64,000 nucleotides of DNA from Staphylococcus phage Fi4S2: the sequence record PV037056.1; one strand, 5' to 3'. A program made the position numbers and the translations under genes. The number at the start of each line of letters is the position of its first letter. Position 1 is the first letter of the stretch. Below are positions 10,950-45,243 of this stretch, piece by piece. Under the pieces are notes generated by a model. The model made no database searches, was not told the DNA's origin, and saw only the letters and a list, made by a program, of their open reading frames with translations.

Positions 10950-11010
10950 CTACAATTTATATTAAATGCCCAACGACTATCTGTAACCTATCTACAATGT
11001 AGAGGGATAA

Positions 11011-11160
11011 GGTTAGAGCCAAGTGGTCAAGGTATTGAGTAATAATCATATAAAACCTTGTTAAATCGAAACGGTGGAACTCCCATGGGAGTTCCACCGT
11101 TTCGATTTAACAAGGTTTTATATGATTATTACTCAATACCTTGACCACTTGGCTCTAACC
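11011..11160. repeat. Perfect 150-bp palindrome (75-bp arms) centred on CCCATGGG
   Basis: Read directly: 11011-11085 is the exact reverse complement of 11086-11160. The first mismatch occurs at 11007/11164. Confidence 0.9.
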
Positions 11161-11345
11161 TTCTCCCTCTTACTTAGTAAGATAGGTTACGGATAGTCGT
11201 TAGGCATTTACAATACTTAGTATTGATTTAGCACGGGATTACCTCTATCCTTTTAGGACTTAGGTTCTCTTATCAGCTGTTTAAAGCTATGCCCGTTTTA
11301 GATGGATTTTTCGATAAGGATTGCTCCTTAAAGCTACATTTTAGT

Positions 11346-11744
11346 TTATAGAAACGCTATTTGTTCTGTTACGATTTCCCCTACTCGGAATTCTTCATTA
11401 TAATTTTGTGCACTACAGCCGTGATAAGATATAATAACATCTTTAGTTAAATTATCCACGACTACAAGGTCGATTACGTCTTTTTTAAGAATTTCTTCAC
11501 CTAGTGAAGCAAAGCCTAACTTAGCAAAGTTCTCTTTTTTCATACGTAAACGTTCTACTGTTATTGTACCCTCATAACGTAAGTATACGTGTTCTTGAGG
11601 CATAATAGAACCAATTTCATAAACACCTGTAGTACCATATTCACGTTGTCCTGACGCTGATTGTGCACGACCAACGATTTTTCCACCTACCATAATGTAG
11701 ACGGTATTACCACTGTGTACAGACTGTTTCTTTTCTGATGCCAT
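11346..11744 (-). CDS. tail tube protein
   Basis: 132-aa ORF immediately downstream of the sheath gene on the same strand; size and position are typical of a myovirus tube protein. Confidence 0.65.
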   Translation of the reverse strand: MASEKKQSVHSGNTVYIMVGGKIVGRAQSASGQREYGTTGVYEIGSIMPQEHVYLRYEGTITVERLRMKKENFAKLGFASLGEEILKKDVIDLVVVDNLTKDVIISYHGCSAQNYNEEFRVGEIVTEQIAFL

Positions 11745-23330: not shown

Positions 23331-24629
23331 CTACTGTCCTAATTGAGGGTCTGTGGGTTCTAATGTTTGTTCTTCTTGAGCATTTTCTGTCTCATTATCA
23401 GGTGTCTCTTCTCCAGTTTCTATAGTCTCTTCAGGATTCTCAGAGTTACCTACATCTTCTTCCATATTAGTTTCTTCTTCTTCAGGAGGAGAAGGATTAG
23501 TTACTTCTTCTTCTGTATTATCTCGCCCTTCTTCAGGAGGTGTAGGGTTGACTGTCTCTTCTCCATTACTGTTTTCATTGTTGTTTTCTGCTGGAGGTAC
23601 TTCAGGTTCAGGAGCCTCTTCTCCATTACCACCATCTGTATCGACATTATCAGAAGGCTCTTCAGGATTAGTAACTTCCCCGTTACCACCATCTGTATTA
23701 CCTCCTCCAATACCTCCAGGCGTATTAGGGTCAGGATTAGGATTAATATTAACGTCAGGGTCTTCAGGTACAGTAGGGTCTGTAGGCTCAGGTTCTACAG
23801 GTTGTGTAGGCTCTACAGGTGTAATGTTTCCATCTCCACCATTATTACTATCCCCGTTGTTAGTACCTGTATTACCTCCTCCTATTCCCCCAGGAGTGTT
23901 AGGGTCAGGGTTAGGATTTACATTAACGTCAGGGTCTTCAGGGTTATCAGTAGGTGGAGAAGGCTGTGTTACTCCATTGTCAACACCCTCTGCATTGTTG
24001 TCATCTCCTCCTCCTATTCCTCCAGGAGTGTTAGGGTCAGGGTTAGGATTAACATTAACGTCAGGGTCTATTATACTTCCATATTCTTGACCAATAACGG
24101 GCGGAGAGGAGCTATTTATATTTGGTGAAGTATTGTAAGGGTTGTTAACTAATGAGTCATCCTGAGATGGTACAGGTGCTTGTGCGCTTCTAGCTCTATC
24201 TAAAGACTCTTTATCACCTGCTTTGTAACCCTCACTTTCATTAGCTCTTACTTCTTTATTAGAGCTATCCTTCATTGCAGTATCGTCACTAATGACTTCT
24301 TTAATAGATTTATCTTTGTTAGCTTCTTTATCTATTGTTTCTTTCATTTTTTCTGCGTCTTCTATTTTTTCTTGTTTACTCTTCTTGTTGTAATCTTTAT
24401 AGTCAGATTCCTTTTTTATTTTTATTATTTGCTTTTGAGCTTCATCTAGTTTACTCTTACTATCTTCTGAACGCTCTTTGTAAAGCTCCACCTTATCTTC
24501 TAGATTCTCTGCATCAGAAGATAACTTTCTATTATTTACATACAAGAAAATAAGACCTAAAATGACTACGATACCTATAGCAATTACTAATACATCACTT
24601 ATAAGCTTATTTTGTTTTCCACTCTTCAC
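23331..24629 (-). CDS. membrane-anchored protein with coiled-coil, Pro/Gly tandem repeats and acidic tail
   Basis: 432 aa. It has an N-terminal TM segment (LISDVLVIAIGIVVILGLIFLYV), three copies of DPDVNVNPNPDPNTPGGIGGG and a D/E-rich C-terminus. Confidence 0.6.
   Translation of the reverse strand: MKSGKQNKLISDVLVIAIGIVVILGLIFLYVNNRKLSSDAENLEDKVELYKERSEDSKSKLDEAQKQIIKIKKESDYKDYNKKSKQEKIEDAEKMKETIDKEANKDKSIKEVISDDTAMKDSSNKEVRANESEGYKAGDKESLDRARSAQAPVPSQDDSLVNNPYNTSPNINSSSPPVIGQEYGSIIDPDVNVNPNPDPNTPGGIGGGDDNNAEGVDNGVTQPSPPTDNPEDPDVNVNPNPDPNTPGGIGGGNTGTNNGDSNNGGDGNITPVEPTQPVEPEPTDPTVPEDPDVNINPNPDPNTPGGIGGGNTDGGNGEVTNPEEPSDNVDTDGGNGEEAPEPEVPPAENNNENSNGEETVNPTPPEEGRDNTEEEVTNPSPPEEEETNMEEDVGNSENPEETIETGEETPDNETENAQEEQTLEPTDPQLGQ
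23720..24070 (-). repeat. three tandem ~120-nt coding repeats within the 432-aa gene
   Basis: Near-identical DNA blocks encode the PEDPDVNVNPNPDPNTPGGIGGG repeats. Confidence 0.7.
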
Positions 24630-24727: not shown

Positions 24728-25420
24728 TTATTTCCACTTAATTTTTCCCCAATATTTCTCACTCTTGATTCTTTCTTTCTTATCTGTGATTCTACATACT
24801 GCTAAGTAGAAATAACCTGCTGAAGGGTTTGTTGGGTATTTAAACTTAATCCACCAGTAACCGTCTTTTTTAGTTACAGATACAAAGTCTACCCATTGGT
24901 TAGCGTATAGCCAAGAGCCTTTGCCTACAACAGAACCTTTTAACCCAGCACTACGTCTAACTTTGATAGTAGCATTAGCTGTAAAGCGTCCTTTCCAAGC
25001 CCATGTAATTTTCTTAGAAGGTTTAGGTACAGGTAGTTTCTTGAATTTAGGTCTAACAAAAATCATGTTAGGGTCATAGTTGTGTACACGTTTTGTTACT
25101 GTTTCCCAACCTGTACCTCCCATTTCTCCACCTGATGTCCAGCCTCCTCCAAGCCAATTCTGCTCTAGGAGAGTTAAGCTGTTTAACGTTGCAGATAGTA
25201 CCCATGCAACATGTCCAGCTCCATTACCATATGTACCAGGGAATATACACATATCTCCTGGTTTAGCTAAAAAGCTAGGTGTATTTTTATAGATAGTAGC
25301 TGTGTTTTTGAATATAGCTTTGTTATCTCCTGCGATATTTTTTGCATATGCTCCTGAAAGCATCTTACCAGGGAATAACTTTAGCCATCCTGCGTTTGCA
25401 TAGTCATAACATTGAACTTT
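24728..25420 (-). CDS. CHAP-SH3b endolysin, exon 2
   Basis: The reading frame is open upstream of the annotated Met (..[12 protein letters not shown]..). This is the CHAP catalytic Cys region, followed by the GHVAWV His motif and an SH3b (SH3_5) domain. Confidence 0.75.
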
Positions 25421-26307
25421 ATATTACGTATCTACCTTTCCTTTATACCATTTCTAGTATAAGATGTCTAGTAGGTACTCTTATAGTTTCCCATAAGAAT
25501 AGACTATCTCATTAATTGACAAATTCTTCAAATTTTAACTTTGTTCCATTTTTTAAGTTGTAATTAAGAATGAAATCTTTCCGTCCGTTAACTGCCTCTT
25601 GTAGTGTTTTAAAAGTACCTATATGCTTAGGTCTCCTATTTATACATACATTAACTTCATATTGGTCTTTAGACTCTCTATAGAAAACTCCTGTATAACC
25701 TGTTTTATTGTTATACTTTTTCCTATTATTGGAATTCTCTTTAGGTGTCACCCAATGACAGTTATCAGGTCTGTAGTTTCTATTATTATCTATTCTATCT
25801 AGCTGATGGTTCTTACTTGGTGCGTCTCCCATGTCCTCATAAAAGTTAATAAATGATTCATCCCATCTACTACAAACTTTTATTCCTCTACCACCGTATC
25901 TGTGATATGAGTGATAGTTAGAGTTGTTACACCTAGTCTTCATGTTCTTCCATGCTCTATACTCTTTAGGGTATTTTTTAGAACCACCATGAATAGTTTT
26001 ACTTTCTGATATTTTCATTCTTGTTTCTTTGTTTTGAAGTTTTTTAACCATCTATGTCTCCTCCTTTAGAGGTATCATAGCATAATTAAAGTTTGTTGTC
26101 AACTACCCTCCGCTGTCCGTCAATTGACGATGCTTAGTCGTTGGAGTTTCTACCTCTATTACCAAGGTAGCTTACCTGCTGATTGCCCATTGTACATACT
26201 TATTATTTTTAAACATTCAAGCTTGCAATTACTTGCTACTTTGTAGTTAATAAGTCTTTAGGGGTTCCCAGTCAATTCAAAGGGTTTTACTTGGGCTATA
26301 ATGTTAA
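25421..26307 (-). mobile_element. group I intron in the CHAP lysin gene
   Basis: Splits the CHAP domain between DADGWFG and VQC. It carries P7-like strands (plus TAGTC at ~26138, plus GACTA at ~25503) and an internal HNH ORF. Confidence 0.7.
25512..26051 (-). CDS. intron-encoded HNH endonuclease (HNH_3 with AP2-like DNA-binding domain)
   Basis: CNNSNYHSYHRYGGRGI...NCHWVTPKEN HNH motifs, and a C-terminal YTGVFY..KTLQEAV AP2-like domain. Confidence 0.85.
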   Translation of the reverse strand: MVKKLQNKETRMKISESKTIHGGSKKYPKEYRAWKNMKTRCNNSNYHSYHRYGGRGIKVCSRWDESFINFYEDMGDAPSKNHQLDRIDNNRNYRPDNCHWVTPKENSNNRKKYNNKTGYTGVFYRESKDQYEVNVCINRRPKHIGTFKTLQEAVNGRKDFILNYNLKNGTKLKFEEFVN

Positions 26308-27427: not shown

Positions 27428-27634
27428 CTAATCTTCTTGAATAGTTAAAAGAGACTTAATAATCTGACTAGCGTATTTACCATCTAGTGTTTTTAAATCT
27501 ACATCAGGGAGTAAATCCATTTTATCCCACAGTTCTTCTTTTGTTTGAACTTTATTATTGATAAATGCTTTACCAATTAAACTTTGAATATAATTAAATT
27601 GTTTTGAACTCATTGGTTGAGAAGTATTATTCAT
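27428..27634 (-). CDS. hypothetical protein
   Basis: 68 aa with no TM segment; sits upstream of the lysins. Confidence 0.45.
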   Translation of the reverse strand: MNNTSQPMSSKQFNYIQSLIGKAFINNKVQTKEELWDKMDLLPDVDLKTLDGKYASQIIKSLLTIQED

Positions 27635-27865
27635 AATATACCGCCTTTAATTTTGTTTATATGTATTTGAAGAGGAGGTAAAAGGAGCCACCCTAATACC
27701 TCTTTGATTTAACAGCTTAGAGTATAGTCAAAATAAGTAGTAGATTACCTTGACTATAAATACATTATAACACAGAGTAGTTATATTTTTTTATCTTTTA
27801 CATATAGTTATTTAATCTTGAATGTGGGAGTTCTTACCTTTATTTATGTTGTATAAAACTTATTA

Positions 27866-27989
27866 TGACACATTTAGGAATTTAACGATGTTTATTAGTA
27901 TATATACTTTAATAACCTTTATTAGTACTTTAGTAATTATAATAATAATAGTTATATATAAAGATTGATAAATGTTCTAAATGTGTCAC
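27866..27989. repeat. MITE-like 124-bp element, copy 1, with 12-bp terminal inverted repeats
   Basis: Begins TGACACATTTAGG and ends CTAAATGTGTCAC; AT-rich interior. Confidence 0.7.
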
Positions 27990-28012
27990 TTTATGTTGTA
28001 TACTATCTATTA

Positions 28013-28135
28013 TGACGTATTTAGGAATTTATTAACCTTTATTAGTAATTATAGTTATAATACTAGTAATTATAATTAAAGATATATAAAGTATATAGTT
28101 ATATATAAAGATTAATAAAATCTTAAATGTGTCAC
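28013..28135. repeat. MITE-like element, copy 2 (tandem)
   Basis: Begins TGACGTATTTAGG and ends TTAAATGTGTCAC; the interior is homologous to copy 1. Confidence 0.7.
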
Positions 28136-28155: not shown

Positions 28156-28190
28156 ATAAAAAAAGAGAACTAAACTAATAGCTCTCTTCA
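28156..28190 (-). terminator. intrinsic terminator
   Basis: A8-GAGAACTAAACTAATAGCTCTCTT. Same design as 24688-24725. Confidence 0.5.
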
Positions 28191-28201: not shown

Positions 28202-28420
28202 TTAAACTTTACCTTCTACAGATATAATTAAGTTAGCATTAATAAAGATTTGTTTAGAATCTACACTATCTTCAGTATTAGCTAAGAATAAACTATGTCC
28301 ACCTTTACCAATAGACTGAGAAACATGAGTTACAGGTATTACCCCAGCCTCTCCTTCAGGGAAAGCAAAGAATTTACTACCGTCAATCATTGTTATTTCT
28401 AGTTTTTTAAAGTTATACAT
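28202..28420 (-). CDS. hypothetical protein
   Basis: 72-aa ORF. Confidence 0.45.
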   Translation of the reverse strand: MYNFKKLEITMIDGSKFFAFPEGEAGVIPVTHVSQSIGKGGHSLFLANTEDSVDSKQIFINANLIISVEGKV

Positions 28421-28437
28421 TTACAACTTCCTCTCTT

Positions 28438-28776
28438 TTAATTTAAAAATTTACCAAGTATATAAGGTATAGCAACACCAATAGCACCTAGTATAGCCTT
28501 CTCAGCAAAAGCTTTTCTGTTATCACTACGGTCTTGGTCACTATCTTGTAAAGCTTTTAGTTGTTGAGATAGCTCATTGACAGTATCAAACAGTTGTTGG
28601 TTTTTTATCTTATCTATTTCATAATTTCTATCTAGGCTGTTTAGCTTAGCTTCTAAGTCTTCTAGAGACTGAATTAATGCTTTGAAATCTTCAGTTTTAA
28701 CATATTTACCTGCTATTAAATCTTGCTCTATGCTTCTTAATCTATCCAATACATCTGAAAGATTGCTAGTGTCCAA
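28438..28776 (-). CDS. coiled-coil protein with C-terminal TM anchor
   Basis: 112 aa; heptad-rich, ending AILGAIGVAIPYILGKFLN. Confidence 0.5.
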   Translation of the reverse strand: MDTSNLSDVLDRLRSIEQDLIAGKYVKTEDFKALIQSLEDLEAKLNSLDRNYEIDKIKNQQLFDTVNELSQQLKALQDSDQDRSDNRKAFAEKAILGAIGVAIPYILGKFLN

Positions 28777-28810
28777 GACCTTACCCTCCCATCAAAACTT
28801 TTACTGCACT

Positions 28811-29086
28811 TTATGTTGATTTTTCTTTAAAGTATGTTATAATATAGTTAATCAGTGATAGAGTAGTAGCTATTACTGTAATAAAGGTTATTGGCAGTGA
28901 CCTAGTAGCAAGACCTAGCAAGTTTAATATGAGCAAGCATATCAAAACTATAACTGAAATAGCACTATAACATTTATCAATACCATTGCGGTAGTATAGA
29001 TTATGAGAAAGCCTTTTTGTACTATGTTCAAGAAGGAAGATGTACCACAAGCTAGACGCAAAATAAAGTGCAAAAAATAACCACAT
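28811..29086 (-). CDS. small membrane protein (about 3 TM)
   Basis: 91 aa, hydrophobic; first gene of the minus-strand unit at the divergence point. Confidence 0.5.
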   Translation of the reverse strand: MWLFFALYFASSLWYIFLLEHSTKRLSHNLYYRNGIDKCYSAISVIVLICLLILNLLGLATRSLPITFITVIATTLSLINYIITYFKEKST

Positions 29087-29201
29087 AAGTCTTCACCTCT
29101 CAAAAAAATAATATAACACAATGGTTTGGCAGGCAGTTGTGTTAAATTAATAGTATATAGGCTGTAATTTTAGCCTAAGAAAAGTAGAGGTGTGATAAGC
29201 T

Positions 29202-29627
29202 TTGTTTTCAAACTTAAAAGACGTTATTCTTAAAGCTTTTTTAGTGGTATTTGTGTCCATGCTAGCACTAGCAGTAGTAAATCATTTAGCATTTATGTTA
29301 GGTCTTAGACCGACATCTATAATAATTTATATACTATTTGGTGTGGTGCTGACTAATACCGTACTCAATTGGTATGATAGAATAGCTAATAATTATGAAG
29401 ACCCTTTACCTAAATACGTAATAGATAAATTAGAGCGTAAAGATAAAGAACTACAAATTATAAAAGAAGCTATTAACAACATAGAAGGAATTAATTTAAC
29501 ACGTTCAGAGATTGAAGTCTTAGCAGAAAAACACCTCCAAGACCAAAAGTCAGGTGGTGATAAGTCAGATGACTCTGCAAGAACTGAAGAAGAAAAGGTT
29601 ATCAGTATCAAAAAAACAAATAAGTAA
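29202..29627 (+). CDS. membrane protein with coiled-coil C-terminus
   Basis: 141 aa, two N-terminal TM segments; first gene of the plus-strand unit. Confidence 0.5.
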   Translation: MFSNLKDVILKAFLVVFVSMLALAVVNHLAFMLGLRPTSIIIYILFGVVLTNTVLNWYDRIANNYEDPLPKYVIDKLERKDKELQIIKEAINNIEGINLTRSEIEVLAEKHLQDQKSGGDKSDDSARTEEEKVISIKKTNK

Positions 29628-30638: not shown

Positions 30639-31922
30639 TAATTGGGGCTATAGTAAGTAATTACTATAGAAAACTCTACTAAAAGGGCAAAGCTGAATAA
30701 TGAATAAGCTGATAAGAGAGCCTAAGTCCTAAAAGGATAGTGGTAATCCCTTCCTAAATTCTTGACATCATAGATTCACTATGCTATGATTAAATCAAGA
30801 TAAATGGCTAACGACTAAATTTACTGGTATCTATTCAAAAGGGAATAAGTAGAACAGTATAAGAAAACTTGTCAATTTAGCTAAAATAGGAGAATTGAAA
30901 ATGACTAAAAGAAAAACCCATGATGAATTTGTAAAAGATGTTTATAATCTAACAGGTGATGAATACACTGTAGTAGGAACCTATACACTAACAAAAAACA
31001 AATTAGAGATGAAACATAATGTTTGTGGTAACACATATGAAGTAAAAGCAAATAACTTTATATGTGGTAAACGATGTCCTGTATGTATGAAAAAGAAAAA
31101 ATACAATACCTCTGAAGATATAAAACAGAGGATAGATGATAAATATCAGGGTCGTTTAGTTATGGTAGGTGACTATGTAGACTTACAGACAAAAACATCT
31201 TTTAAATGTACTATCCACAATACTTATATAGATAGAGCTCCTGGAGTAGTTTTGTCTACTAATACTAACGTATGTAAAGAATGTATAGCAGAAGCTTCTA
31301 GTAAACGACAATTGAGTAATTCCAAGTACATTCAGGATAAGTTAGATAAGTTACACAATGGAGCTATCATAATTATAGGTGATTATAAAGGTAATCATAC
31401 AAAAACTCTTTTTAAGTGCTTAGACTGTACCAAAGAGTTTGATGCAGAGCCTAATTCTGTTACTAGAATAAGTGGATGTCCAAGATGCAAATTATCAAAA
31501 GGTGAAAAAGAAATATCTTCAATTCTTAACTCTTTAAATGTGTCATATATACCTCAAAAGACTTTTGATGATTGCATATACAAAAGAAAGTTACCTTTTG
31601 ATTTTTATATAGAGAGTGCAAATTTACTAATTGAATATGATGGTTTACAACATAGTAAGCCTATAGAGTACTTCGGTGGAGAAGAAGCCTATAAAAAGCA
31701 AGTTATTAAGGATTCTATAAAAACCAAGTATGCTACTGATAATAATATCAAGTTAGTGAGATTTAATTACAATACTCCTAAGACAGAAATGAAGAAAACT
31801 ATTGTAAAACTTATTGACAAGAAGTAATGTAGAGAATCCTTAACCTAAACTAAGGATTATGAGATAGTCTAGTCCCACTCTTAAATGAGTGTTAAAGTAT
31901 CACGAAAGTGAGGGTATAATCG
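30639..31922 (+). mobile_element. group I intron in terL
   Basis: P7 strands AACGACTAAAT (~30820) and GATAGTCTAG (~31875) flank an endonuclease ORF. The segment 30709-30750 is ~95% identical to the inverted intron copy at 11235-11277. Confidence 0.65.
30895..31827 (+). CDS. intron-encoded endonuclease: multi-CxxC zinc-finger N-terminus + PD-(D/E)xK (DUF559/Vsr-like) C-terminus
   Basis: Repeated C..C motifs (CGNTYEV, CPVCM, CKEC, CPRC), then PFDFYIE...LIEYDGLQH...D..K..KLVRF, the DUF559-type nuclease signature. Confidence 0.7.
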   Translation: MKMTKRKTHDEFVKDVYNLTGDEYTVVGTYTLTKNKLEMKHNVCGNTYEVKANNFICGKRCPVCMKKKKYNTSEDIKQRIDDKYQGRLVMVGDYVDLQTKTSFKCTIHNTYIDRAPGVVLSTNTNVCKECIAEASSKRQLSNSKYIQDKLDKLHNGAIIIIGDYKGNHTKTLFKCLDCTKEFDAEPNSVTRISGCPRCKLSKGEKEISSILNSLNVSYIPQKTFDDCIYKRKLPFDFYIESANLLIEYDGLQHSKPIEYFGGEEAYKKQVIKDSIKTKYATDNNIKLVRFNYNTPKTEMKKTIVKLIDKK

Positions 31923-35747: not shown

Positions 35748-36378
35748 TTATCAGACATACGAGAGATACCGTATGTTGCCTGGCAGAGGCTTTATATCTG
35801 ACTGTTGGTCTCGACTGGTGACTCCTTCCAGTCCAGTATCTAATTCACACAGAGCCTTAGCGCTCATCTAAATTTCCGTGGTTCTGACTGGTGCGCACTG
35901 GTCTTTACTGAAAACTTAGGGTTTCCCTGTACTAGCGTTAGTATCGGTTAAGCGTTAGATAAGGTGAACCGTACCTACTTTCCAAATAGGGATAACTCAA
36001 AATTAGATAGCAACTTGAGAGTGAAATAAGTCGGACAGCTTTATATTCAGAAGAAGTGTCAGAGAATATAAAGTTATGGCTTGAGATACCGAGCCTTGAT
36101 TATTAGGTATCCGACACTTGGCGTGTAACCTAAGTTTATGGTTAGATGGGTTACAACATAAGGAAGCTGATTTTCTCTGTATAGCTTAGAGGAACTCCAT
36201 AAGACAGCCAAACCACTGTATATTCAGTTACTATGACAAAGCTATATGAGGTAAACTCTTATATAGCTCCCTGTTATAGTGCATACACGCAGTGACGAGC
36301 GTTTCAACATCAAGGATACTCATACAATTGTCGTAAAATAATATTAACCGTAATCTAAGTACGGGAGCCTTGATGGGA

Positions 36379-36412
36379 CACCTATTAATTAAAATAGGTG
36401 TTTTTTTTTTGT
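36379..36412 (+). terminator. intrinsic terminator
   Basis: CACCTATTAATTAAAATAGGTG followed by T11. Confidence 0.75.
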
Positions 36413-36446
36413 TGACATTAATTTTTTAGTATGCTACAATAAATAC
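36411..36446 (+). promoter_or_regulatory. sigma-A-like promoter
   Basis: TTGACA - 17 nt - TACAAT. Confidence 0.55.
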
Positions 36447-36472
36447 ATAGAAAAAATAAAGGAGAATCAATA

Positions 36473-36856
36473 ATGAAGAAATTAATTATTGTAGCTATTT
36501 TAAGTGTATTTTTATTAGGAGCCTGTTCTCAATCAGACAGAGTAAGTGATAATCTATCTAAGGAATCTGACAATTTCAATACAGTAAGAAAGGTAACTGT
36601 TATTAACGCTATAAAACAAGATGTTATTTTCCAAATGTCAGGTAGAATGTCTATTAAAGCAGATAAAGAAGATAATCAACTTGAAGTTGTAGTAGAGAAG
36701 AAAAAAGGACAGTATCAAAAACATATTATAGGTCTTTCTGATAATGTCTCTTATGTAGTAGAGGATGTAACAACTAAGAATGTAAGTAACTATCAATATG
36801 AAATTAACTACAATCCTAAAATGTGGATTCCTGCTAAACCTGATTATAAAGATTAG
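36473..36856 (+). CDS. lipoprotein
   Basis: Signal peptide with a lipobox LLGAC; RBS AAGGAG. Confidence 0.7.
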   Translation: MKKLIIVAILSVFLLGACSQSDRVSDNLSKESDNFNTVRKVTVINAIKQDVIFQMSGRMSIKADKEDNQLEVVVEKKKGQYQKHIIGLSDNVSYVVEDVTTKNVSNYQYEINYNPKMWIPAKPDYKD

Positions 36857-36862
36857 AATTAA

Positions 36863-36888
36863 AACACCTATTAAGGTGTTTTTTTTGA
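36863..36888 (+). terminator. intrinsic terminator
   Basis: ACACCTATTAAGGTGT followed by T8. Confidence 0.7.
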
Positions 36889-36940
36889 CATTTATAGATA
36901 AGTATGATAAGGTATTAATATACAATAAGGAGGAGATTGA

Positions 36941-37399
36941 ATGCGCAATATAGTAACAAGAGGTAGGTTATATGAATTATTTATGGAAGATAGTGAGAGA
37001 AGTAAACTTAATAAAGGTGATTTTATAGCTAAAATGCCTAGTATTAGCCATGACAAGGAAGAAAAAGGCATTAAGTTTTATTTCAACTTTACTAAAGATA
37101 ACAATAATAGTGATTTTGATTCATTTACTATCTTAGTAACTCCTGATAGAGAATATCTAGAAAAAGACAGTATAGAACTAGCACTTATAGGTATGAAACC
37201 AGGAGTAGTATTTAAAAAAGTAAACAATGATTTTGATACATTCTTTAAAACGTTTATTCAATTAAGAGATGAATATATAGAGTTTAAAGGTGAATTTAAA
37301 GAATCAAACAAAGAAAAAATAAAAATAAGTAGAGAAGTAGAAGAATTAAGGAATCAAGAAATGAAAGCTATGAAGGATTCTTTAAATAAATATGTATAA
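36941..37399 (+). CDS. hypothetical protein
   Basis: 152 aa; RBS AAGGAGG. Confidence 0.55.
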   Translation: MRNIVTRGRLYELFMEDSERSKLNKGDFIAKMPSISHDKEEKGIKFYFNFTKDNNNSDFDSFTILVTPDREYLEKDSIELALIGMKPGVVFKKVNNDFDTFFKTFIQLRDEYIEFKGEFKESNKEKIKISREVEELRNQEMKAMKDSLNKYV

Positions 37400-37411
37400 A
37401 TTAGGAGGACT

Positions 37412-37606
37412 ATGAAGATGAGAATATTTTTTAGCGGAGCTTTTACAGCTATCGTAATTTACTTTATATTAAAAGTTTTATTGTTGTTATCAGGTATGAA
37501 TATAGATGAGTTAAAAGGCAATGAGTTGTATACTACTAACTGTATTTTAGTTATGGCATTTATTTGTGGTGCAGTAAGTCAAGCTATAAAGCAGATAAAG
37601 GAGTGA
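37412..37606 (+). CDS. small membrane protein
   Basis: 64 aa, two TM segments; RBS AGGAGG. Confidence 0.45.
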   Translation: MKMRIFFSGAFTAIVIYFILKVLLLLSGMNIDELKGNELYTTNCILVMAFICGAVSQAIKQIKE

Positions 37607-37612
37607 TAAAGT

Positions 37613-38314
37613 ATGGCTATTTATGTAATTCCTGACATACACGGGGAATATAATAAACTAGTAACACTGATGGGTAAAATTAATAAAGAAAGAAGACCCG
37701 AAGATACTATCGTATTTCTAGGTGACTATATAGATAGAGGTAAAAGGTCTAAGGATGTTATAAACTACGTGTTTGAGTTAGTATCTAACGATGATGACAT
37801 TATACCATTATTAGGAAATCATGATGATGCATTTTGGCATTGTATACAAAATATTGATAAACTGGACATATACACTGTTGAATGGCTTTCACGATACTGT
37901 ATAGAAACACTAGAGTCATATGGGATTGACACAACATCGTTAAAGAGCTTCGAGTTAAACCAAACTGAGTTTTGTAGAGAACACTTTGATAGCCTGATTA
38001 CAGAAATTAAATCTTTTAAAGAGTCAGAGGACTATAGGAAGTTTAATATATTAATGCATAATTGCGCTGTTATCTATAAACAAGATAAATATGAGTTTAC
38101 GCATTCAGGTGGAGTTAGTTGGAACCATGCTAAAAACCAAACCAAAGACCAGCTACTATGGTCTAGAGATTTTCAGCCTAGAAAAGATGGACTCATTCAC
38201 GTATGTGGTCATACACCTACAAAAAGTGGAGAAGTAGAGGAACTAAATGACATGCTACTATGTGATGTTGGCGTAGTGTTTAGAGAAATAGAATTCCCAT
38301 TAATAAAACTTTAA
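37613..38314 (+). CDS. Ser/Thr protein phosphatase (PPP-family metallophosphoesterase)
   Basis: DIHGE, GDYIDRG and GNHD motifs. Confidence 0.8.
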   Translation: MAIYVIPDIHGEYNKLVTLMGKINKERRPEDTIVFLGDYIDRGKRSKDVINYVFELVSNDDDIIPLLGNHDDAFWHCIQNIDKLDIYTVEWLSRYCIETLESYGIDTTSLKSFELNQTEFCREHFDSLITEIKSFKESEDYRKFNILMHNCAVIYKQDKYEFTHSGGVSWNHAKNQTKDQLLWSRDFQPRKDGLIHVCGHTPTKSGEVEELNDMLLCDVGVVFREIEFPLIKL

Positions 38315-38318
38315 TCAA

Positions 38319-38348
38319 TCACCTATCTTAACTGATAGGTGATTTTTA
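38319..38348 (+). terminator. intrinsic terminator
   Basis: TCACCTATCTTAACTGATAGGTGA followed by T5. Confidence 0.65.
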
Positions 38349-38417
38349 GTTAATGTTGTTGCATACGGTCTATATGTGATATAATAAAAAGAAAAGAAAG
38401 AAATTTGGTGAACAAAA

Positions 38418-38645
38418 ATGATAACAATACAACGATTTAACAATATACTTGATGAAGCTATCATAGATAGTGTAACTTTAAAAGACATAGAGGTAGATGG
38501 TAAAGTCTATCCTGCAATTATAAATGAACCTGATAGCAAAGTAACTTTTCTAGAACTATCAGGAAATGACTACAAGCCTAGCGTTATGGTTTATATGTAT
38601 AGAGGTAATTTAATGACAGTACCTTGTAAACTTGAAACTTTTTAA
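38418..38645 (+). CDS. hypothetical protein
   Basis: 75 aa. Confidence 0.45.
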   Translation: MITIQRFNNILDEAIIDSVTLKDIEVDGKVYPAIINEPDSKVTFLELSGNDYKPSVMVYMYRGNLMTVPCKLETF

Positions 38646-38654
38646 ATAAAATAG

Positions 38655-38684
38655 TTGACATTACCTATATTAAAGTGATAGACT
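38655..38684 (+). promoter_or_regulatory. sigma-A-like promoter
   Basis: TTGACA - 18 nt - TAGACT. Confidence 0.45.
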
Positions 38685-38712
38685 ATATTTATATTAAAGG
38701 AAGGGTGATAGT

Positions 38713-38943
38713 ATGAACAAGCTTAATAGATGGATTAACGATAAAGTTATGAAAAAAGAGTATAAAACTTATGAAGTTCATATACAGCATAACTTTAAAG
38801 AACCTTATAAGTCTTATGAGTTTTTTATAGAGGAAAAAGCTAAAAGCAAGCAAGAAGCAGTAGAAAATGTAAAAAGATTTATTAGTAAACATGCTAATCC
38901 AGGAGATAATTATAAAGTAGTCAAAGCCAAAAGGGTGAAGTAA
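38713..38943 (+). CDS. small basic protein
   Basis: 76 aa, K-rich; RBS AAAGGAAGGG. The stop lies 1 nt from the next start. Confidence 0.5.
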   Translation: MNKLNRWINDKVMKKEYKTYEVHIQHNFKEPYKSYEFFIEEKAKSKQEAVENVKRFISKHANPGDNYKVVKAKRVK

Positions 38944-38944
38944 T

Positions 38945-39160
38945 ATGGTAAAAAAACTGCAACGTGTTAGACAAGAGCAGGGATTATCATTAAAAAATTT
39001 AGCAGATAACATAGGTGTCCATCCAACTACCATAAACTATTGGGAGCATGGTAAACGTAATCCTAAAAGTGTTAACAGAATGATGTTAGAGGAAGAACTT
39101 GGTAAGCCTATAGATTTTTTATTAGAGGAGGATAATAATGACAGAACTAAACATAGATAG
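38945..39160 (+). CDS. XRE-family helix-turn-helix regulator
   Basis: LSLKNLADNIGVHPTTINYWEHGKRNP is an HTH_3 motif. Confidence 0.7.
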   Translation: MVKKLQRVRQEQGLSLKNLADNIGVHPTTINYWEHGKRNPKSVNRMMLEEELGKPIDFLLEEDNNDRTKHR

Positions 39161-39851
39161 TTTATTACCTACTGGGTATGAGGGAGAAGAAGTTTATGAA
39201 TTAGTTGAGACATTTCAGCTACAAGATTTAATGTTAACTCTAGGGAAAGATAACTTTAGCTTTATTATTAGTCAAATAAACAACCTAAATAGTAAAGAAG
39301 ATACGGTAAGATTTTTAGGTATACTAGATAAATTATTATCAAAAGATAGACCTAAAGTTATATATGATGATGTATATAGAGTACCTAATACTAGAGCTAT
39401 AGATACAACAATTGAAGAGTTAAGTAAAATTAAGCTATTAAAATATAAACAAGCATGGGAAGAAGAGTTTCCTAATCTACGCAAGTCTATATTAAGCTAT
39501 CTTCAGCTAGCAATATCTATTTTGAGCTCTAGAGAAGAAGAGCCTAGTGAATATTCAGATGTAGATGTGAAGTTTGAAGCAGACGATGAATTAACTCCAG
39601 TTATAGAAACTTTTATTGACAGCCTATTCAAATCAGTGTATAATGAAGAAAGAATTACAAAAGTTTTAGAGATAATTAAGGAAGACAATGATGACCTAGG
39701 TAAAAACCCTGAAGATAAGTCATTGTTAAGATTGTACTTTATCTTAGGTGATGAAGTAGAGGATGATTCTGACATTGAAGAACTTGTAAATGATAAAGCA
39801 GAAGTCCTATCTACTTACATTATTGCTAGATTAGAGGAACAAAATAACTAA
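39138..39851 (+). CDS. hypothetical acidic protein
   Basis: 237 aa. Confidence 0.5.
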   Translation: MTELNIDSLLPTGYEGEEVYELVETFQLQDLMLTLGKDNFSFIISQINNLNSKEDTVRFLGILDKLLSKDRPKVIYDDVYRVPNTRAIDTTIEELSKIKLLKYKQAWEEEFPNLRKSILSYLQLAISILSSREEEPSEYSDVDVKFEADDELTPVIETFIDSLFKSVYNEERITKVLEIIKEDNDDLGKNPEDKSLLRLYFILGDEVEDDSDIEELVNDKAEVLSTYIIARLEEQNN

Positions 39852-39865
39852 TTAGGAGTGGTTAT

Positions 39866-40054
39866 ATGTACTTATTTACAATTAAACTTGATGAATTTAT
39901 TTTAGACATTGTTGCGGAAAATGCAGAAAAAGCTTTACTTCACATTCATAAGAGATTTAACATTATTGAGCCTCCTGAAATATTGCGTACAGAGGTATTA
40001 GACGACCCTGAAGATGATGAATACATTTCAAAAGCGGTAAGCATAAATGTCTAA
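39866..40054 (+). CDS. hypothetical protein
   Basis: 62 aa; RBS AGGAGTGG. Confidence 0.45.
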   Translation: MYLFTIKLDEFILDIVAENAEKALLHIHKRFNIIEPPEILRTEVLDDPEDDEYISKAVSINV

Positions 40055-40496
40055 GTATCAATTGTATACAGATGGAAGTTATGACAAAGAAAGTGAAGTA
40101 TATGGATGTGGATTTGCACTAGTTAAAGACGGTGTATGTATATCTACACATACAAAAGCTTATTGTAATGAGTTTTCAGCACATCGTAATGTTGCAGGAG
40201 AAGTATTAGCTGTCATGCTAGGTATAGAGTATTGCTTTAAAATAGGTGTAAAAGAACTAGAAATAGTTTACGATTATACAGGAATTGGTAATTGGGCTTT
40301 AGGAATATGGAATGCAAAAAAACCATTGACACAAATGTATAAAAGGTTTATACTTAGTTATACAAACCACATGACTTTAGAATTTACAAATATTAAAGGT
40401 CACACAGGTGTAGAATACAATGAACTTGCTGATGAATTAGCAAGTAAATCAATTAAGGAATTTAAAGGAGAAATTAGTTATGAAAACAACAATTAA
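40047..40496 (+). CDS. rnhA: ribonuclease HI
   Basis: YTDGSY...GCGF...AGEVLAV...NWALGIW...IKGHTGVEYNELADELA is an RNase H fold with the catalytic D/E/D positions. Confidence 0.8.
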   Translation: MSKYQLYTDGSYDKESEVYGCGFALVKDGVCISTHTKAYCNEFSAHRNVAGEVLAVMLGIEYCFKIGVKELEIVYDYTGIGNWALGIWNAKKPLTQMYKRFILSYTNHMTLEFTNIKGHTGVEYNELADELASKSIKEFKGEISYENNN

Positions 40497-41022
40497 AGGA
40501 ATTAGAGAATTTAAAACAAAGGACATTAATGAAGTCATAAAAACACTAGATGTTGATTTGTTTACAGACAAGCAGTTAATCAGAGACACATCAGGAGATT
40601 ATTTAGCAGAATATAATATTCAAGAGGATGACATTACTTATTATACTTGTAATGAGAATTTACATGGTACAGCAGAAGAGCTAACTAAAGTACATCCATC
40701 TGAGTTACCTGATGGTTTAGAGTGGAGAGCTTTACACCACGGGGAAGTTAATGTATTTGATGAGGGCATAAGACATAAGTTATTTACTATCACAACTGTA
40801 CTACCTGGTGTAAAAACATCATCAAAAACGTGTTATTCAGGAGAGCTTCTAGAACTATACTATGATTCCATGTATGAGCTTATTTTAGCAAATTACGATG
40901 GGGTTGTTTATATAACAGCGTCAGACTTACACACAGGTGAAGTAGAGTTCTTATCTACTGACAGACAAGACATTATTGATACTTTCACACAAGCCAATGT
41001 TAAAAAACAATTGAGTATGTAG
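40480..41022 (+). CDS. hypothetical protein
   Basis: 180 aa; RBS AAAGGAG. Confidence 0.5.
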   Translation: MKTTIKGIREFKTKDINEVIKTLDVDLFTDKQLIRDTSGDYLAEYNIQEDDITYYTCNENLHGTAEELTKVHPSELPDGLEWRALHHGEVNVFDEGIRHKLFTITTVLPGVKTSSKTCYSGELLELYYDSMYELILANYDGVVYITASDLHTGEVEFLSTDRQDIIDTFTQANVKKQLSM

Positions 41023-41031
41023 GAGGAACTT

Positions 41032-41313
41032 ATGGAGAAAAGAGATAAGAAAAAACTCACAAAAGAGTTAAGAGCCCTGGAAAAGTCCTTTTTAGAAGAG
41101 TGTTATGAAGACTATGAGAGTGTTAAAGGTATAGTAAACTCTACTAAAGATAACGGAAACCGTAAAGAGTTAGTTGATACAGCTAAGAAAACTATCATAA
41201 GTATGATAGAGAGCTTAGACATTCACGTAAAATCTTACAAATACTTATATAAAAAAAGTAAATTAAAATCAAAGCTTCAAAGTCTTTATTTAGAGTTGGA
41301 GTTTGAGGAGTGA
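41032..41313 (+). CDS. hypothetical protein
   Basis: 93 aa; RBS AGGAGG. Confidence 0.5.
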   Translation: MEKRDKKKLTKELRALEKSFLEECYEDYESVKGIVNSTKDNGNRKELVDTAKKTIISMIESLDIHVKSYKYLYKKSKLKSKLQSLYLELEFEE

Positions 41314-41317
41314 TTAA

Positions 41318-41493
41318 ATGTCAATAGGTGAGATTGTGTTCTTACTAATATGCTTTATATTAGGTTCACTATCAGTTGGTATGTTAGTAGCAGATAGAGA
41401 TAATATAAGTAAAAATGAAGGAGCTTTCTTTATACTTGTATTAGTACTAAGTCTCGTGTGTATATGTTATACATTTATAAGTTATATTAATTA
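41318..41493 (+). CDS. small membrane protein (58 aa, not in ORF track)
   Basis: MSIGEIVFLLICFILGSLSVGMLVA..., with RBS GAGGAG. Confidence 0.35.
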
Positions 41494-41504
41494 GGAGGAT
41501 TATA

Positions 41505-41756
41505 ATGTTAAAGAATATTTCAAAACATATGTATGATGGTAATTTTTTCAGTAGGTTAGTGATGATTGTATTGACAATGATTTCAGTTTCTTTAGTATTC
41601 TATGTAGTGTACTCAACTATCTTTGTACTTTATTCTGTTTTAGGGTTAGGAGCATTTTTAGTTAGTGGTATGATAGGTATCTTATTAATTGTTGTTGCTA
41701 TGATTAAGTACCCTAAGAAGCAAGAATATAGTGAGTACGCTAGGAAGCGTATGTAG
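41505..41756 (+). CDS. membrane protein
   Basis: 83 aa, two TM segments; RBS AGGAGG. Confidence 0.5.
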   Translation: MLKNISKHMYDGNFFSRLVMIVLTMISVSLVFYVVYSTIFVLYSVLGLGAFLVSGMIGILLIVVAMIKYPKKQEYSEYARKRM

Positions 41757-41918
41757 GTGGTGTGAACATGAAACCAGTTGTAGCTTTAACGGTAGAAGAG
41801 GCAGTACTCATTACTAAACACCTAAAAGGTAGTAATGATAAAAAAGTTGTAGAACTAAAGGACTCTATTAATGAGAGAATACAAATAGCTTTAGGTTCTA
41901 CTAAAAAAGATTAAATTA

Positions 41919-41952
41919 AAGACTTGACTTATGTCAGGTCTTTTTGTATACT
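41919..41952 (+). promoter_or_regulatory. terminator hairpin overlapping a sigma-A-like promoter
   Basis: AAGACTTGAC-TTAT-GTCAGGTCTT followed by TTTT; within it TTGACT - 17 nt - TATACT. Confidence 0.5.
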
Positions 41953-41982
41953 ATAAATAGATAAGAAAAGGAGAGATAATGT

Positions 41983-42855
41983 ATGCAAGTATATAAAGGA
42001 AAAAGTTATGATAAGCAATACCAAGAACTATGTAGTCGTATATATGAAGAAGGGGAGTTAGACACGAACCCAAGACCACATTATGAAGATGGTGAACCAG
42101 CTCATGTTAGGTCGGTATTCCATCACACATTCAAATTTACCCCTCAAGATGTACCTCTATTATTTAGCAAAAAGGTGTTTACTAGACAAGCAATTGAAGA
42201 ACTGTTGTGGATTTGGCGTGATAGAAGTAATGATGTAGGGAAATTACAAGATAAAAACGTACACATATGGGACTTTTGGGCTGATGAAAACAACACAATT
42301 AAACGTGCGTACGGTTATCAACTTGCACAGGAGGTAGGTCATACAGGACGTAATCAAGTAGACAACCTCATTCATAACCTAAAAACAAATCCTGAGAGTC
42401 GTAGACATATTGTACACTTATGGAATGTTGAAGACATAGATGACATGGCTTTAACACCTTGTGTATTTTTAACGCAATGGTGCGTTGTAGGCAACAAATT
42501 GCATTTAGAAGTTATAGTACGCTCTAATGACATTGCACTAGGAAATCCTTTTAACTGTATACAGTATTGGGTACTTCATAAGCTGATTGCAAAAGAAGTT
42601 GGTATTGAAGCAGGAGATGTTATGTTTACGATGGTTATGCCTCATATCTATGATAGACACTTCGATACTATCAATGAACAGATGAAAAGACTATCAGATT
42701 TAGACGCTATAGACCCTGTATATGACAAAGAGATTACTGTTGAAATTGATGATGTAGGATTCTACGATTTTACATTGGATAATATCAGAATTAAAGGCTA
42801 TGACAACTTCGGTGGAGAGCCATTAAAAAAATATAGTTTTGAAGTTGGAATCTAG
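41983..42855 (+). CDS. ThyA-family enzyme (thymidylate synthase / dNMP hydroxymethylase-like)
   Basis: RRHIVHLWNVEDID, then MALTPCVFLTQW (catalytic Cys), then VRSNDIALGNPFN. The Cys is followed by V rather than H, and ThyA's QRS appears as VRS. Confidence 0.7.
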   Translation: MQVYKGKSYDKQYQELCSRIYEEGELDTNPRPHYEDGEPAHVRSVFHHTFKFTPQDVPLLFSKKVFTRQAIEELLWIWRDRSNDVGKLQDKNVHIWDFWADENNTIKRAYGYQLAQEVGHTGRNQVDNLIHNLKTNPESRRHIVHLWNVEDIDDMALTPCVFLTQWCVVGNKLHLEVIVRSNDIALGNPFNCIQYWVLHKLIAKEVGIEAGDVMFTMVMPHIYDRHFDTINEQMKRLSDLDAIDPVYDKEITVEIDDVGFYDFTLDNIRIKGYDNFGGEPLKKYSFEVGI

Positions 42856-42881
42856 TATATGTTACATTAAGGAGGACTTAT

Positions 42882-43109
42882 ATGGGTTTTTCAGATGAGC
42901 TAAATAAGCATAAACGTAAATCTAGCTTTAAAGAATATGAAGAACAAGTAAAAGCATTTAAAGAAGACCCTAATTCTATTTATAATAGACTTAAAGCCAT
43001 GCCTTATACTCATTGGAGGCTATACTTCGATACCAAGTATAACTACATGGACTTAAGAAAAGAACCCAGGAAAGAATATGAATTTAAATATATAGACAAG
43101 GAGAAGTGA
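42882..43109 (+). CDS. hypothetical protein
   Basis: 75 aa; RBS AAGGAGG. Confidence 0.45.
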   Translation: MGFSDELNKHKRKSSFKEYEEQVKAFKEDPNSIYNRLKAMPYTHWRLYFDTKYNYMDLRKEPRKEYEFKYIDKEK

Positions 43110-43663
43110 TTAATGTGCTTTATGTAATAGTCGGGAATACCTGTTCAGGTAAGACAACACTACAAAAAGAATTAGTTAGGCTTACAGGTATTAAACCTTT
43201 AATTACCTACACTAATAGACCTATGAGAGATAATGAGGTAGAAGGGCAAGATTATTTCTTCATCAGTACTAAAGAGATAGAAAGCCCTATGTATGTTAAT
43301 AAAAGGTATTTCTATACTATTCATGATGTAAATCCATATATTTATGGTATACATTACGATGATTTAAAAGATGAGGAGGATAAGATAGCTATACTCGACC
43401 CTCCAGGTGTATATAACCTACGCAGTCTTCTAGGAGAAGAAAACTTAAAGACGATGTACTTAGACATCCCTGAAAAGATTATTAAAGAGAGAGCAGAGTT
43501 GCGTGGGGATGAGGAGGCAGAGATTGAACGTAGGTTAGAAGATGATAGACCAGGATTTGAAAGTATCAAAGATGACTGTGACTTAATACTAACTCCTTTA
43601 AGTGGTGACATCACGAGTACAGCATACAAGTTCATTCAAGGAGGAAACAACAATGAGTTATAA
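43106..43663 (+). CDS. dNMP/guanylate kinase-like P-loop kinase
   Basis: P-loop GNTCSGKTT and a TNRPMRDNEVEGQDYFF segment similar to guanylate kinase. Confidence 0.7.
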   Translation: MINVLYVIVGNTCSGKTTLQKELVRLTGIKPLITYTNRPMRDNEVEGQDYFFISTKEIESPMYVNKRYFYTIHDVNPYIYGIHYDDLKDEEDKIAILDPPGVYNLRSLLGEENLKTMYLDIPEKIIKERAELRGDEEAEIERRLEDDRPGFESIKDDCDLILTPLSGDITSTAYKFIQGGNNNEL

Positions 43664-44006
43664 CATTAACTTGAGATTAGTTAAAGACATTATAAACAAC
43701 AGAGCAGACCACAATCCCTACCTAACTTTAGAGCAGAATACGGGTAGTTACGTGGATGCATCTATAGATGAAGTTAAATTTACATCTTTTATGTCAGAAA
43801 ATAAGCTCTATGAAGTAATATCTATTACTATTACCCCTTTGAACATAGCTACTACATCTAAAATAGAAATAATGCTAATGCAAAAGGATTTTAAAGACGT
43901 AACAATATCTAATGTTAAGGACTTAGCTTTTGAATTAATGACTGTGAGAGGTTCTATAGAATTAGTAAATGAGTTATATAGGAGTGACCAATATGAAAAA
44001 ATATGA
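43653..44006 (+). CDS. hypothetical protein
   Basis: AGGAGGA RBS precedes the ATG at 43653. The longer 43602 ORF overlaps the kinase. Confidence 0.45.
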   Translation: MSYNINLRLVKDIINNRADHNPYLTLEQNTGSYVDASIDEVKFTSFMSENKLYEVISITITPLNIATTSKIEIMLMQKDFKDVTISNVKDLAFELMTVRGSIELVNELYRSDQYEKI

Positions 44007-44205
44007 AAAAAGTATTATTACATTGGCTATAGCTATTGTGTACTTTATTATACTTACTGGTATCTTCTTTATAGGGTTCCATTACGAGCTACAAAAAGCA
44101 TTGGTTGAAGCGGGTAAGAGTGCTATTATTGTATGGCTTGTAGTTTGGTTATTGGATTACCTATCGACAAACAATAGTAAGAAAAAGAAGAAAAAGAAGA
44201 AGTAG
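43993..44205 (+). CDS. small membrane protein with poly-Lys tail
   Basis: About 70 aa, two TM segments; RBS AGGAGTGA. Confidence 0.4.
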   Translation: MKKYEKSIITLAIAIVYFIILTGIFFIGFHYELQKALVEAGKSAIIVWLVVWLLDYLSTNNSKKKKKKKK

Positions 44206-44228
44206 CTTTGGCTACTTTTTTTTTATTT
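44200..44228 (+). terminator. intrinsic terminator
   Basis: AGTAGC-TTTG-GCTACT followed by T9. Confidence 0.65.
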
Positions 44229-44333
44229 TCTAAAAATTGTAATAAAAAGATACTGTTCTGTAACATTAGTGTAATGTACTTGTGTTAGATTAAGAGAGTA
44301 GAAAAATACAAAACAAATTACACGGAGGATTTT

Positions 44334-45032: not shown

Positions 45033-45070
45033 TGTTATATTAGAACTAAACCATCAGAAAGGAAGATTAC

Positions 45071-45243
45071 ATGATTGAAGTAAGCCAAGAGTTCTTAGCT
45101 CAACTAGCAAAAAGTAATGATGAAAACTTAAATAAAAAACCTTTACAAAAAGGTGATTACAGCATTGACTTCGAGTTAGATGGTATCCAATATCATTTTG
45201 CACAAACTAATGGACGATGGGTTTGGAACTACAAAGCTAAATA
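45071..45243 (+). CDS. 57-aa ORF paralogous to the N-terminal domain of the preceding secreted protein
   Basis: NKKPLQKGDYSIDFELDGIQYHFAQTNGRWVWNY matches NSKPVQAGAYNIDFVNNGQSYHFESNGSTWSWS. Followed by a terminator. Confidence 0.4.

Follow-up and report, generated by a model that had tools for sequence, protein, structure and literature searches.

Tandem box-bounded AT-rich units of a Twort-like Staphylococcus phage, a candidate counterpart of the putative phage K replication origin

What are the short AT-rich units, bounded by inverted repeats, that occur twice in tandem and once more at a distant locus in a 64,000-nt stretch of Staphylococcus phage Fi4S2 (PV037056.1; this whole stretch is called the window from here on)? 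A previous sequence-only reading had put forward a miniature inverted-repeat transposable element (MITE), operator sites for a dimeric regulator or homing-endonuclease scars. From their anatomy and their position in related phages, we lean towards the interpretation that the units are initiator boxes flanking a DNA-unwinding element, and that the tandem pair is the ortholog of the putative K-type replication origin; the third unit would be a lineage-specific duplicate of the module and its neighbouring promoter block, forming an extra origin-like module. The window (33.6% GC) comes from a Twort-like Staphylococcus myovirus (Herelleviridae, Twortvirinae) showing ~97% identity to phage vB_SsapH-Golestan-100 in BLAST comparisons, and both repeat loci are 97-99% identical to those of this phage (LC647030.1; hereafter, Golestan-100). 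We designate the units of the tandem pair (27866-28134) c1 and c2, and copy 3 (56067-56186) c3.

The units are bounded by inverted TGACRYATTTAGR boxes of 13 bp each, placed ~110 bp apart centre to centre. In c1 (27866-27988, plus strand; 123 bp, 19.4% GC), 97 bp of spacer separate the left box TGACACATTTAGG (27866-27878) from the right box TGACACATTTAGA, which is inverted (27976-27988, minus strand), and in c2 (28013-28134, plus strand; 122 bp, 16.3% GC), which starts 147 bp after the start of c1, the left box TGACGTATTTAGG (28013-28025) and the inverted right box TGACACATTTAAG (28122-28134, minus strand) flank a spacer of 96 bp. Unit c3 (56067-56186, minus strand; 120 bp, 19.2% GC) contains TGACGTATTTAGG at 56067-56079 and TGACACATTTAAG at 56174-56186, on the minus strand. 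All three units described by the sequence-only reading were located, with the correction that c3 starts at position 56067 and not 56066; conversely, the exact 12-bp terminal inverted repeats ascribed to all of them occur only in c1, since the left and right boxes of c2 and c3 agree at 10 of 13 positions, and the inverted symmetry exceeds 12 bp, with imperfect arms reaching ~30 bp inward. Allowing up to one mismatch, the 13-mer TGACRYATTTAGG has seven matches in the window, as compared with 0.30 expected and with none of 100 shuffles reaching seven, and six of these seven matches are the unit ends. The seventh near-perfect box, TTACGTATTTAGG, lies on the minus strand at 29409-29421, inside the open reading frame (ORF) 29202-29627 and beyond the point where the genes diverge; its first bases are of the type seen in phage Alsa (see below), and it could be there by chance, with 0.3 matches expected in the window.

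The similarity among the units extends beyond the boxes. A TATRTTGTAyA motif common to the units occurs ~10 bp outside each box, and the promoter-proximal outer motif, or 'A-end', beginning with TTTATGTTGTATA, adjoins the left box of c1 (27843-27865, plus strand). Its counterparts in the other two units lie at 27990-28012 (c2) and, in inverted form, at 56187-56209 (c3), and it is likewise kept in phages Alsa, PG-2021_27 and PMS2. Each unit is quasi-palindromic, with 71-74% identity to its own reverse complement, and its orientation is therefore ambiguous; folding predictions give long, imperfectly paired hairpins (DNA z-scores between -2.7 and -4.1). Identity between copies is only 74-79%. The best match pairs c2 with the reverse complement of c3 (79% in the core and 78% over 168 nt with flanks), and the 24-mer GAATTTATTAACCTTTATTAGTAA of c2 is present in c3 as its exact reverse complement, which bears out the earlier claim of a segmental inversion. 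There is also a direct alignment of 256 nt, with 67% identity, between the leftward promoter block plus c1 (27749-28003) and positions 55968-56201. On these comparisons, c3 is best interpreted, in its core and the flanks next to it, as c2 in inverted form, and it looks like a duplicate of the promoter-plus-unit module whose core was flipped or converted.

The tandem pair was reported to lie at the divergence between the lysis and terminase genes, but its actual place is ~1 kb within the leftward genes, between ORF 28202-28420 and ORF 27428-27634. The gene order on the minus strand is portal, Pro-rich protein, two amidase/lysin genes, a 68-aa gene, units c1 and c2, and three small genes, and the terminase genes start on the plus strand at position 29202, the divergence point being 29087-29201. 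In 300-bp stretches, the GC content of the window reaches its minimum at the pair (17.7%), and the corresponding stretches are also the minimum of Golestan-100 (17.3%) and of Alsa_1 (16.7%); the least stable DNA of the genome is that between the boxes. On its right, the gap containing c1 and c2 is bordered by the intrinsic terminator (28162-28189, minus strand) of the small leftward gene cluster (28202-29086), and an equivalent terminator is annotated in phages K and Twillingate. On its left there is a 46-bp leftward extended -10 promoter block (27757-27802, minus strand; TGTGTTATAAT at 27764-27774, minus strand), which serves ORF 27428-27634 and the lysin genes, points away from the pair and is duplicated at the c3 locus (repeat family D11). 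The bordering terminator and outward promoters are consistent with the gap being untranscribed. No DnaA box fits at the units, and a search of IMG/VR using a neighbouring 72-aa protein as query did not return related loci. We also considered and discarded a sigma-A promoter within the box: an outward TGTGTCATAAT extended -10 fits the left box of c1 and the right box of c3, and is not kept in Alsa, PMS2 or K.

A putative origin of Twort-like phages has already been described. In phage K, the 450-bp region between gp190 and gp191 is the sole untranscribed locus and has the lowest GC content (21.25%), which was said to 'strongly suggest' that replication originates there, two direct repeats being put forward as the place where Rep may bind (PMC9241854). 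The sequence and coordinates of the K repeats have been given, with the region marked 'ori' and showing minimal transcription, with reference to Lobocka et al. 2012 (PMC11598898). Kayvirus SAM1 has the same low-read gap, with 20% GC, as well as another low-coverage gap at the position of the boundary of the long terminal repeat (LTR) (PMC8952766).

We compared this region, anchored on the boxes, in eight phages, and found a box with an AT-rich tract at this position in one to three copies across lineages. The gap between the small leftward cluster and the next leftward operon is found in the same gene order in K, Alsa_1, PMS2, Twillingate, BS1 and PM56. In phage K it spans 39,052-39,503, between K_076 and K_075, where AAAAAGTACGTATTTAGAAAATAAGGAG occurs twice as a direct repeat and AT-rich DNA comes after each copy. 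In the window, the two genes on the right side of the pair encode homologs of K_076 and K_077 (E 3e-6 and 2e-7) and of an Alsa_1 gene (E 1e-13), and the boxes of c2 and c3 contain the 10-nt core ACGTATTTAG of K unchanged. In Alsa_1, three tandem units of 177 bp, each beginning with TTTATGTTGTATACTACCTATTTACATATTTAGGAATTTATTAACC, are flanked by the terminator that ends the third small leftward gene and by the sigma-A promoter preceding the following one. PG-2021_27 contains two Alsa-type units, and an IMG/VR contig of the Alsa/PG-2021_27 type terminates within the array. The Mammaliicoccus phages PMS2 and PG-2021_12 have two units each, with inverted boxes, and Sepunavirus Twillingate and Silviavirus PM56 contain TTAACTATTTGGC and TTACCTATTTGGA boxes with AT-rich tracts at the same position, which is the lowest-GC part of each locus sequence examined. 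Across lineages the box is kept, and the interior AT-rich tract keeps only its composition. The sequence divergence of the pair tracks that of the phages, and it occupies the same syntenic position in five other Twortvirinae lineages. The synteny with K, the core box, the lowest GC content, and the borders formed by a terminator and an outward promoter together suggest that the pair is this lineage's version of the described putative origin, of which the inverted boxes and the second module would be variant features.

The second locus has a narrower distribution. Unit c3 was found only in the window phage and in its closest relative, Golestan-100, in which both loci are present with all six boxes identical and in which a 20-mer scan allowing zero or one mismatch recovered the six unit ends only; Alsa_1 and PG-2021_12 have a single locus each, with no second one. 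In the window, c3 lies in the stretch with the second-lowest GC content (23.3%, in 300-bp stretches), inside a 1.3-kb gap without a credible ORF, between divergent promoters and upstream of early genes. To its left is the copy of the leftward promoter block (55977-56022, minus strand; TATGTTATAAT at 55984-55994, minus strand; family D11), and 31 bp from its right box there is a sigma-A type promoter, TTGACT-17-TATACT with TG (56218-56246, plus strand), so that the A-end motif is promoter-proximal at c3 as it is at the pair. This promoter drives small early-type genes from 56278 onward, which carry repeated strong promoters. Near-identical strong sigma-A promoters with ribosome-binding sites precede small genes at 56558-56628, 58641-58687, 58784-58854, 59967-60186, 36401-36449 and 45275-45344; repeated promoter families of this kind are typical of early host-takeover genes in SPO1-like and Twort-like phages.

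The 1.3-kb gap to the left of c3 also contains a direct-repeat array (55014-56050, plus strand) of ~8 copies of TGTSGRCTACTACT(W)WAG, most of which is replaced by an HNH gene in Golestan-100. Its core CTACTACTWAG resembles, over 11 nt, the three repeats containing ACTACTACTAAGTACC that phage K has exactly at its annotated LTR boundary, upstream of the first early gene. The array, whose association with c3 is presumed, is a possible LTR-boundary signal, and from this 11-nt resemblance, together with the position, c3 may lie just inside the terminal-repeat boundary, which we regard as a lead rather than a result. The gap showed no similarity to the long non-coding RNA of phage K, and its repeats had no match in Rfam.

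From the observed anatomy, synteny, box conservation and minimum GC we infer protein binding, melting and origin firing, which might proceed as follows. The candidate initiator is a Rep-like helix-turn-helix (HTH) DNA-binding protein (phrog_1098, with E 4e-75 and assigned to DNA metabolism), whose gene lies between the two helicase genes of Golestan-100, at a position just outside the left end of the window. This protein would bind the boxes, and its oligomerisation, or looping, would melt the AT-rich spacer acting as DNA-unwinding element, helped by the negative supercoils that RNA polymerase leaves in its wake as it moves off from the neighbouring outward promoter; helicase and primase of the phage would be loaded next. 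The presumably transcription-free gap between the terminator and the next promoter would keep the region clear of polymerases, and c3, with divergent promoters on its two sides and the early genes downstream, would serve as another site of initiation or of initiator binding. A bolder version, which we judge unlikely, is that the units form a self-contained palindromic 'ori cassette', with inverted initiator boxes on either side of an unwinding element, that could flip by recombining through its own arms and was copied to a new locus, generating a second functional origin just inside the terminal-repeat boundary. If this were true, there would be two further origin copies per packaged genome, and replication would start both internally and at the genome ends; we know of no Herelleviridae phage in which this is the case.

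Several observations weigh against an origin. The common core between Kayvirus and the window lineage is just 10-12 nt, within AT-rich DNA, and in PG-2021_12 the corresponding region is only the third-lowest GC stretch of the genome. The inverted-box layout is not found in K, Alsa, Twillingate or PM56, so the conserved function does not require it. In every lineage a promoter lies 25-100 bp downstream of where the array ends, and the promoter-proximal end has the same orientation at both loci of the window phage, a pattern that a promoter-upstream regulatory role fits equally well. The assignment of the K origin was itself based on composition, repeats and absence of transcripts, and the papers cited here on the K-type region report no experimental proof of origin activity or Rep binding for any Twortvirinae phage.

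The main rival to an origin is a promoter-upstream regulatory or architectural element, in which the boxes would be operators for a phage transcription factor and the spacer, AT-rich and probably bent, would work as a looping or UP-like element, the two jointly controlling the leftward lysis-side operon and the early genes at 56278. We hold this to be possible, if rather unlikely. Each locus does adjoin promoters (at c1, 27764-27774 on the left, minus strand; at c3, 55984-55994 on the left and 56218-56246 on the right), the conserved A-end is always promoter-proximal, and in Alsa, PG-2021_27 and PMS2 a consensus sigma-A promoter follows the last unit at a distance of 25-35 bp; inverted half-sites would also suit a dimeric regulator, and the boxes are compatible with the sites for a dimeric DNA-binding protein suggested previously. 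However, they do not overlap -35 or -10 hexamers and are not present at other promoters of the window or Golestan-100; operator-like sites overlapping many promoters were not seen. Additionally, copy number varies from one to three and the box-promoter distance from 25 to 100 bp between lineages, a simple operator needs no tandem lowest-GC tract of 100 bp, and the K ortholog was published as an origin. The protein involved would most likely be a replication initiator rather than the XRE regulator, and origin and regulatory roles could coexist. It is improbable, in our view, that the units are AT-rich spacer without sequence-specific function, repeated through slippage, duplication and recombination and conserved through shared ancestry. 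Unit length (147-190 bp), copy number and interior sequence vary freely among lineages, as expected for such a spacer, and AT-rich palindromic DNA is prone to duplication and inversion; yet a box of 10-13 nt persists across genera in which the neighbouring intergenic DNA cannot be aligned, the gap is kept at one position in every lineage examined in otherwise tightly packed genomes, and the second locus is kept in two phages, all six boxes being identical. Still more doubtful is a role in packaging, terminal-repeat processing or as a recombination hotspot, through cruciforms or through recognition by terminase or a resolvase. This would find a place for the long imperfect hairpins, for the array next to c3, with its core like the LTR-boundary repeats of K, and for the rearrangement of the window with respect to Golestan-100. 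Nevertheless, the conserved pair is ~30 kb from the LTR in phage K and Alsa_1, and we consequently rejected an LTR boundary for the pair. We also rejected c2/c3 recombination as the source of the Golestan-100 rearrangements, because the order beside each unit is the same, none of the synteny breakpoints coincides with a unit and the c2-c3 segment is not inverted between the two assemblies.

The readings that involve mobile DNA or RNA fared worse. MITEs spreading within the phage genome, a reading that we consider very improbable, would account for the terminal inverted repeats, the uniform length of 120-123 bp, the high AT content and the second locus in this lineage, and a real mobile element, a TnpB gene, exists elsewhere in the window. 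However, there are no target-site duplications in the flanks of c1 (...TTATTA/CTTTAT), c2 (...CTATTA/CTTTCT) and c3 (...CATAA/TAATAC), the sole flank match, TAA at c3, belonging to the extended inverted symmetry. Only two loci exist, both common to Golestan-100; identity between the copies is no higher than 74-79%; and the pair is syntenic across genera, with the same placement in related phages and no sign of mobility. Neither IMG/VR nor a set of 185,579 species genomes from bacteria and archaea had a match to the paired-box pattern, and in Joint Genome Institute metagenomes it had two matches only, in unrelated contigs with tandem repeats of normal GC content. No transposase with matching ends was seen, no wider search having been made, and a link to the TnpB element was discarded because it has no sequence in common with the units. 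The MITE interpretation is thus not supported, given the lack of target-site duplications and of a database family and the conserved placement of the pair, and we find no mobile MITE family in these phages. Homing-endonuclease scars are not supported either: no endonuclease gene adjoins the pair; at the other locus, the HNH gene lying beside c3 in Golestan-100 is absent from the window, and c3 is unchanged. Small structured RNA genes, with the inverted boxes as a closing stem, have a similarly slight chance. Read as RNA from the plus strand, every box mismatch of c2 and c3 would be a G-U wobble, and the predicted hairpins are more stable than those of shuffled sequences. Conversely, the orthologous K region is the sole untranscribed part of the K genome, Rfam has no match to the units, neither with gathering thresholds over the window nor with E values of up to 1 over the c3 locus (54900-56300), and the unit interiors are unconserved and lack a covariation pattern. 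Also, K and Alsa do not have the inverted box, and therefore there is no closing stem there.

How far do these conclusions depend on the assembly? Compared with Golestan-100 (Gol), the window is a mosaic, with junctions at 10246-11419, 36409-36879, 53223-53597, 54990-55666 and 57602-58316, and intron or homing-endonuclease indels also distinguish them. Its blocks correspond as follows: 1-10246 to Gol 58758-67119 (plus strand), 11419-36409 to Gol 23554-1 (minus), 36879-53223 to Gol 99286-116731 (plus), 53597-54990 to Gol 135039-136433 (plus), 55666-57602 to Gol 134356-132427 (minus) and 58316-63999 to Gol 80202-84045 (plus). No junction falls in a unit and both loci have the same local context in both assemblies, so the conclusions about the units are independent of long-range order. 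The spacing is not: the third copy is 28 kb away within the window, as previously stated, but the Golestan-100 record has ~10 kb between the two loci, since a ~17-kb block is placed elsewhere in that assembly. With respect to the canonical order of Alsa_1 and K, the lysis-to-terminase segment is inverted in both assemblies, which suggests one real lineage-specific event.

The first junction coincides with a 170-nt perfect palindrome without spacer (arms 11001-11085 and 11086-11170; window 10243-11341), nested in the inverted repeats formed by 10243-10292 with 11292-11341 and by 10944-10993 with 11180-11229. A GIY-YIG/I-TevI-like endonuclease ORF (10368-10949) lies within this region, which is the exact point where the Golestan-100 synteny jumps from nrdE to the tail tube gene, and this suggests either a mis-assembly by fold-back or a rearrangement mediated by an intron. 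Positions 36274-36412, where the terminase-side block ends beside a synteny breakpoint, match the Rfam DUF3800-I RNA with 45.5 bits, just over the gathering score. The segment 944-2823 is an insertion relative to Golestan-100 and contains the TnpB gene (1396-2670; OrfB_IS605, Cas12f-like TNB and HTH_OrfB domains), directly followed by a match to the Rfam RAGATH-18 RNA (2714-2804; 65.8 bits), which may be the TnpB guide (omega/reRNA); the whole would be an IS605-family TnpB-only element in the replication module of a lytic phage.

Other features accompany the leftward genes and the terminase genes. The 432-aa Pro/Asn/Gly-rich ORF 23331-24629, which is located between the portal and lysin genes and close to an end of the lineage-specific inversion, contains three 110-nt repeats (23659-24074) encoding PDVNVNPNPDPNTPGGIGGG-type segments. 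A lysin gene is split by an intron-like insertion (25416-26306) carrying ORF 25512-26051, and the large terminase gene by another one (30642-31922), whose ORF 30895-31827 encodes CapR and treble-clef zinc-finger domains; 53 nt of the latter insertion (30707-30759) reappear inverted at 11226-11278.

Twort-like Staphylococcus phages are the main candidates for anti-staphylococcal phage therapy, and their origin has so far only been predicted. The short box and AT-rich tract conserved at one position in at least six Twortvirinae lineages define a candidate target sequence for the Rep-like protein. Added to this are a natural variant with inverted boxes and a duplicated module, which offers a natural experiment on origin number and placement; the MITE family is removed as a false lead.

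Among known systems, bacterial MITEs (Correia, RUP and ERIC-type) resemble the units in their small size, terminal inverted repeats, high AT content and intergenic location; they differ in that, for the units, we saw no target-site duplications, dispersed family, presence/absence polymorphism or partner transposase, and their position is kept across genera. The closest likeness is to the putative ori of phage K, with which the pair shares the syntenic gap, the homologous flanking genes, the genome-wide GC minimum, a border formed at one end by a terminator and at the opposite end by a promoter, and tandem units consisting of the ACGTATTTAG core plus ~100 bp of AT-rich DNA. Origin function is a prediction in both phages. 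In the window phage, however, a second inverted box with imperfect arms of ~30 bp closes each unit, whereas K has direct repeats only; the units are spaced at 147 bp, as compared with 190 bp in K; the box is followed by AATTTATTAACC instead of AAATAAGGAG; and a third copy occurs at a second locus.

Iteron-type origins, such as lambda ori and those of plasmids RK2, R6K and pPS10, are the broader class to compare with; iteron plus DNA-unwinding-element origins were reportedly reviewed by Rajewska et al. in 2012 (as cited in PMC8952766). Like them, the units combine repeated short boxes, here putative protein sites, with a very AT-rich stretch and an initiator of the replicon's own, here a candidate. 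Unlike them, each unit has two boxes, which are inverted and flank the AT-rich tract instead of lying beside it, and there is no DnaA box. Priming by a transcript of the T4/T7 type is unlikely, because the promoters in the window point away from the AT-rich tract. In their arrangement, finally, the two loci recall phages SPP1 (oriL and oriR) and T4 (oriA, E, F and G), for which origin activity and initiator or R-loop mechanisms are experimentally established: as in these phages, related origin-like modules occupy two distant loci, one of them by early-gene promoters.

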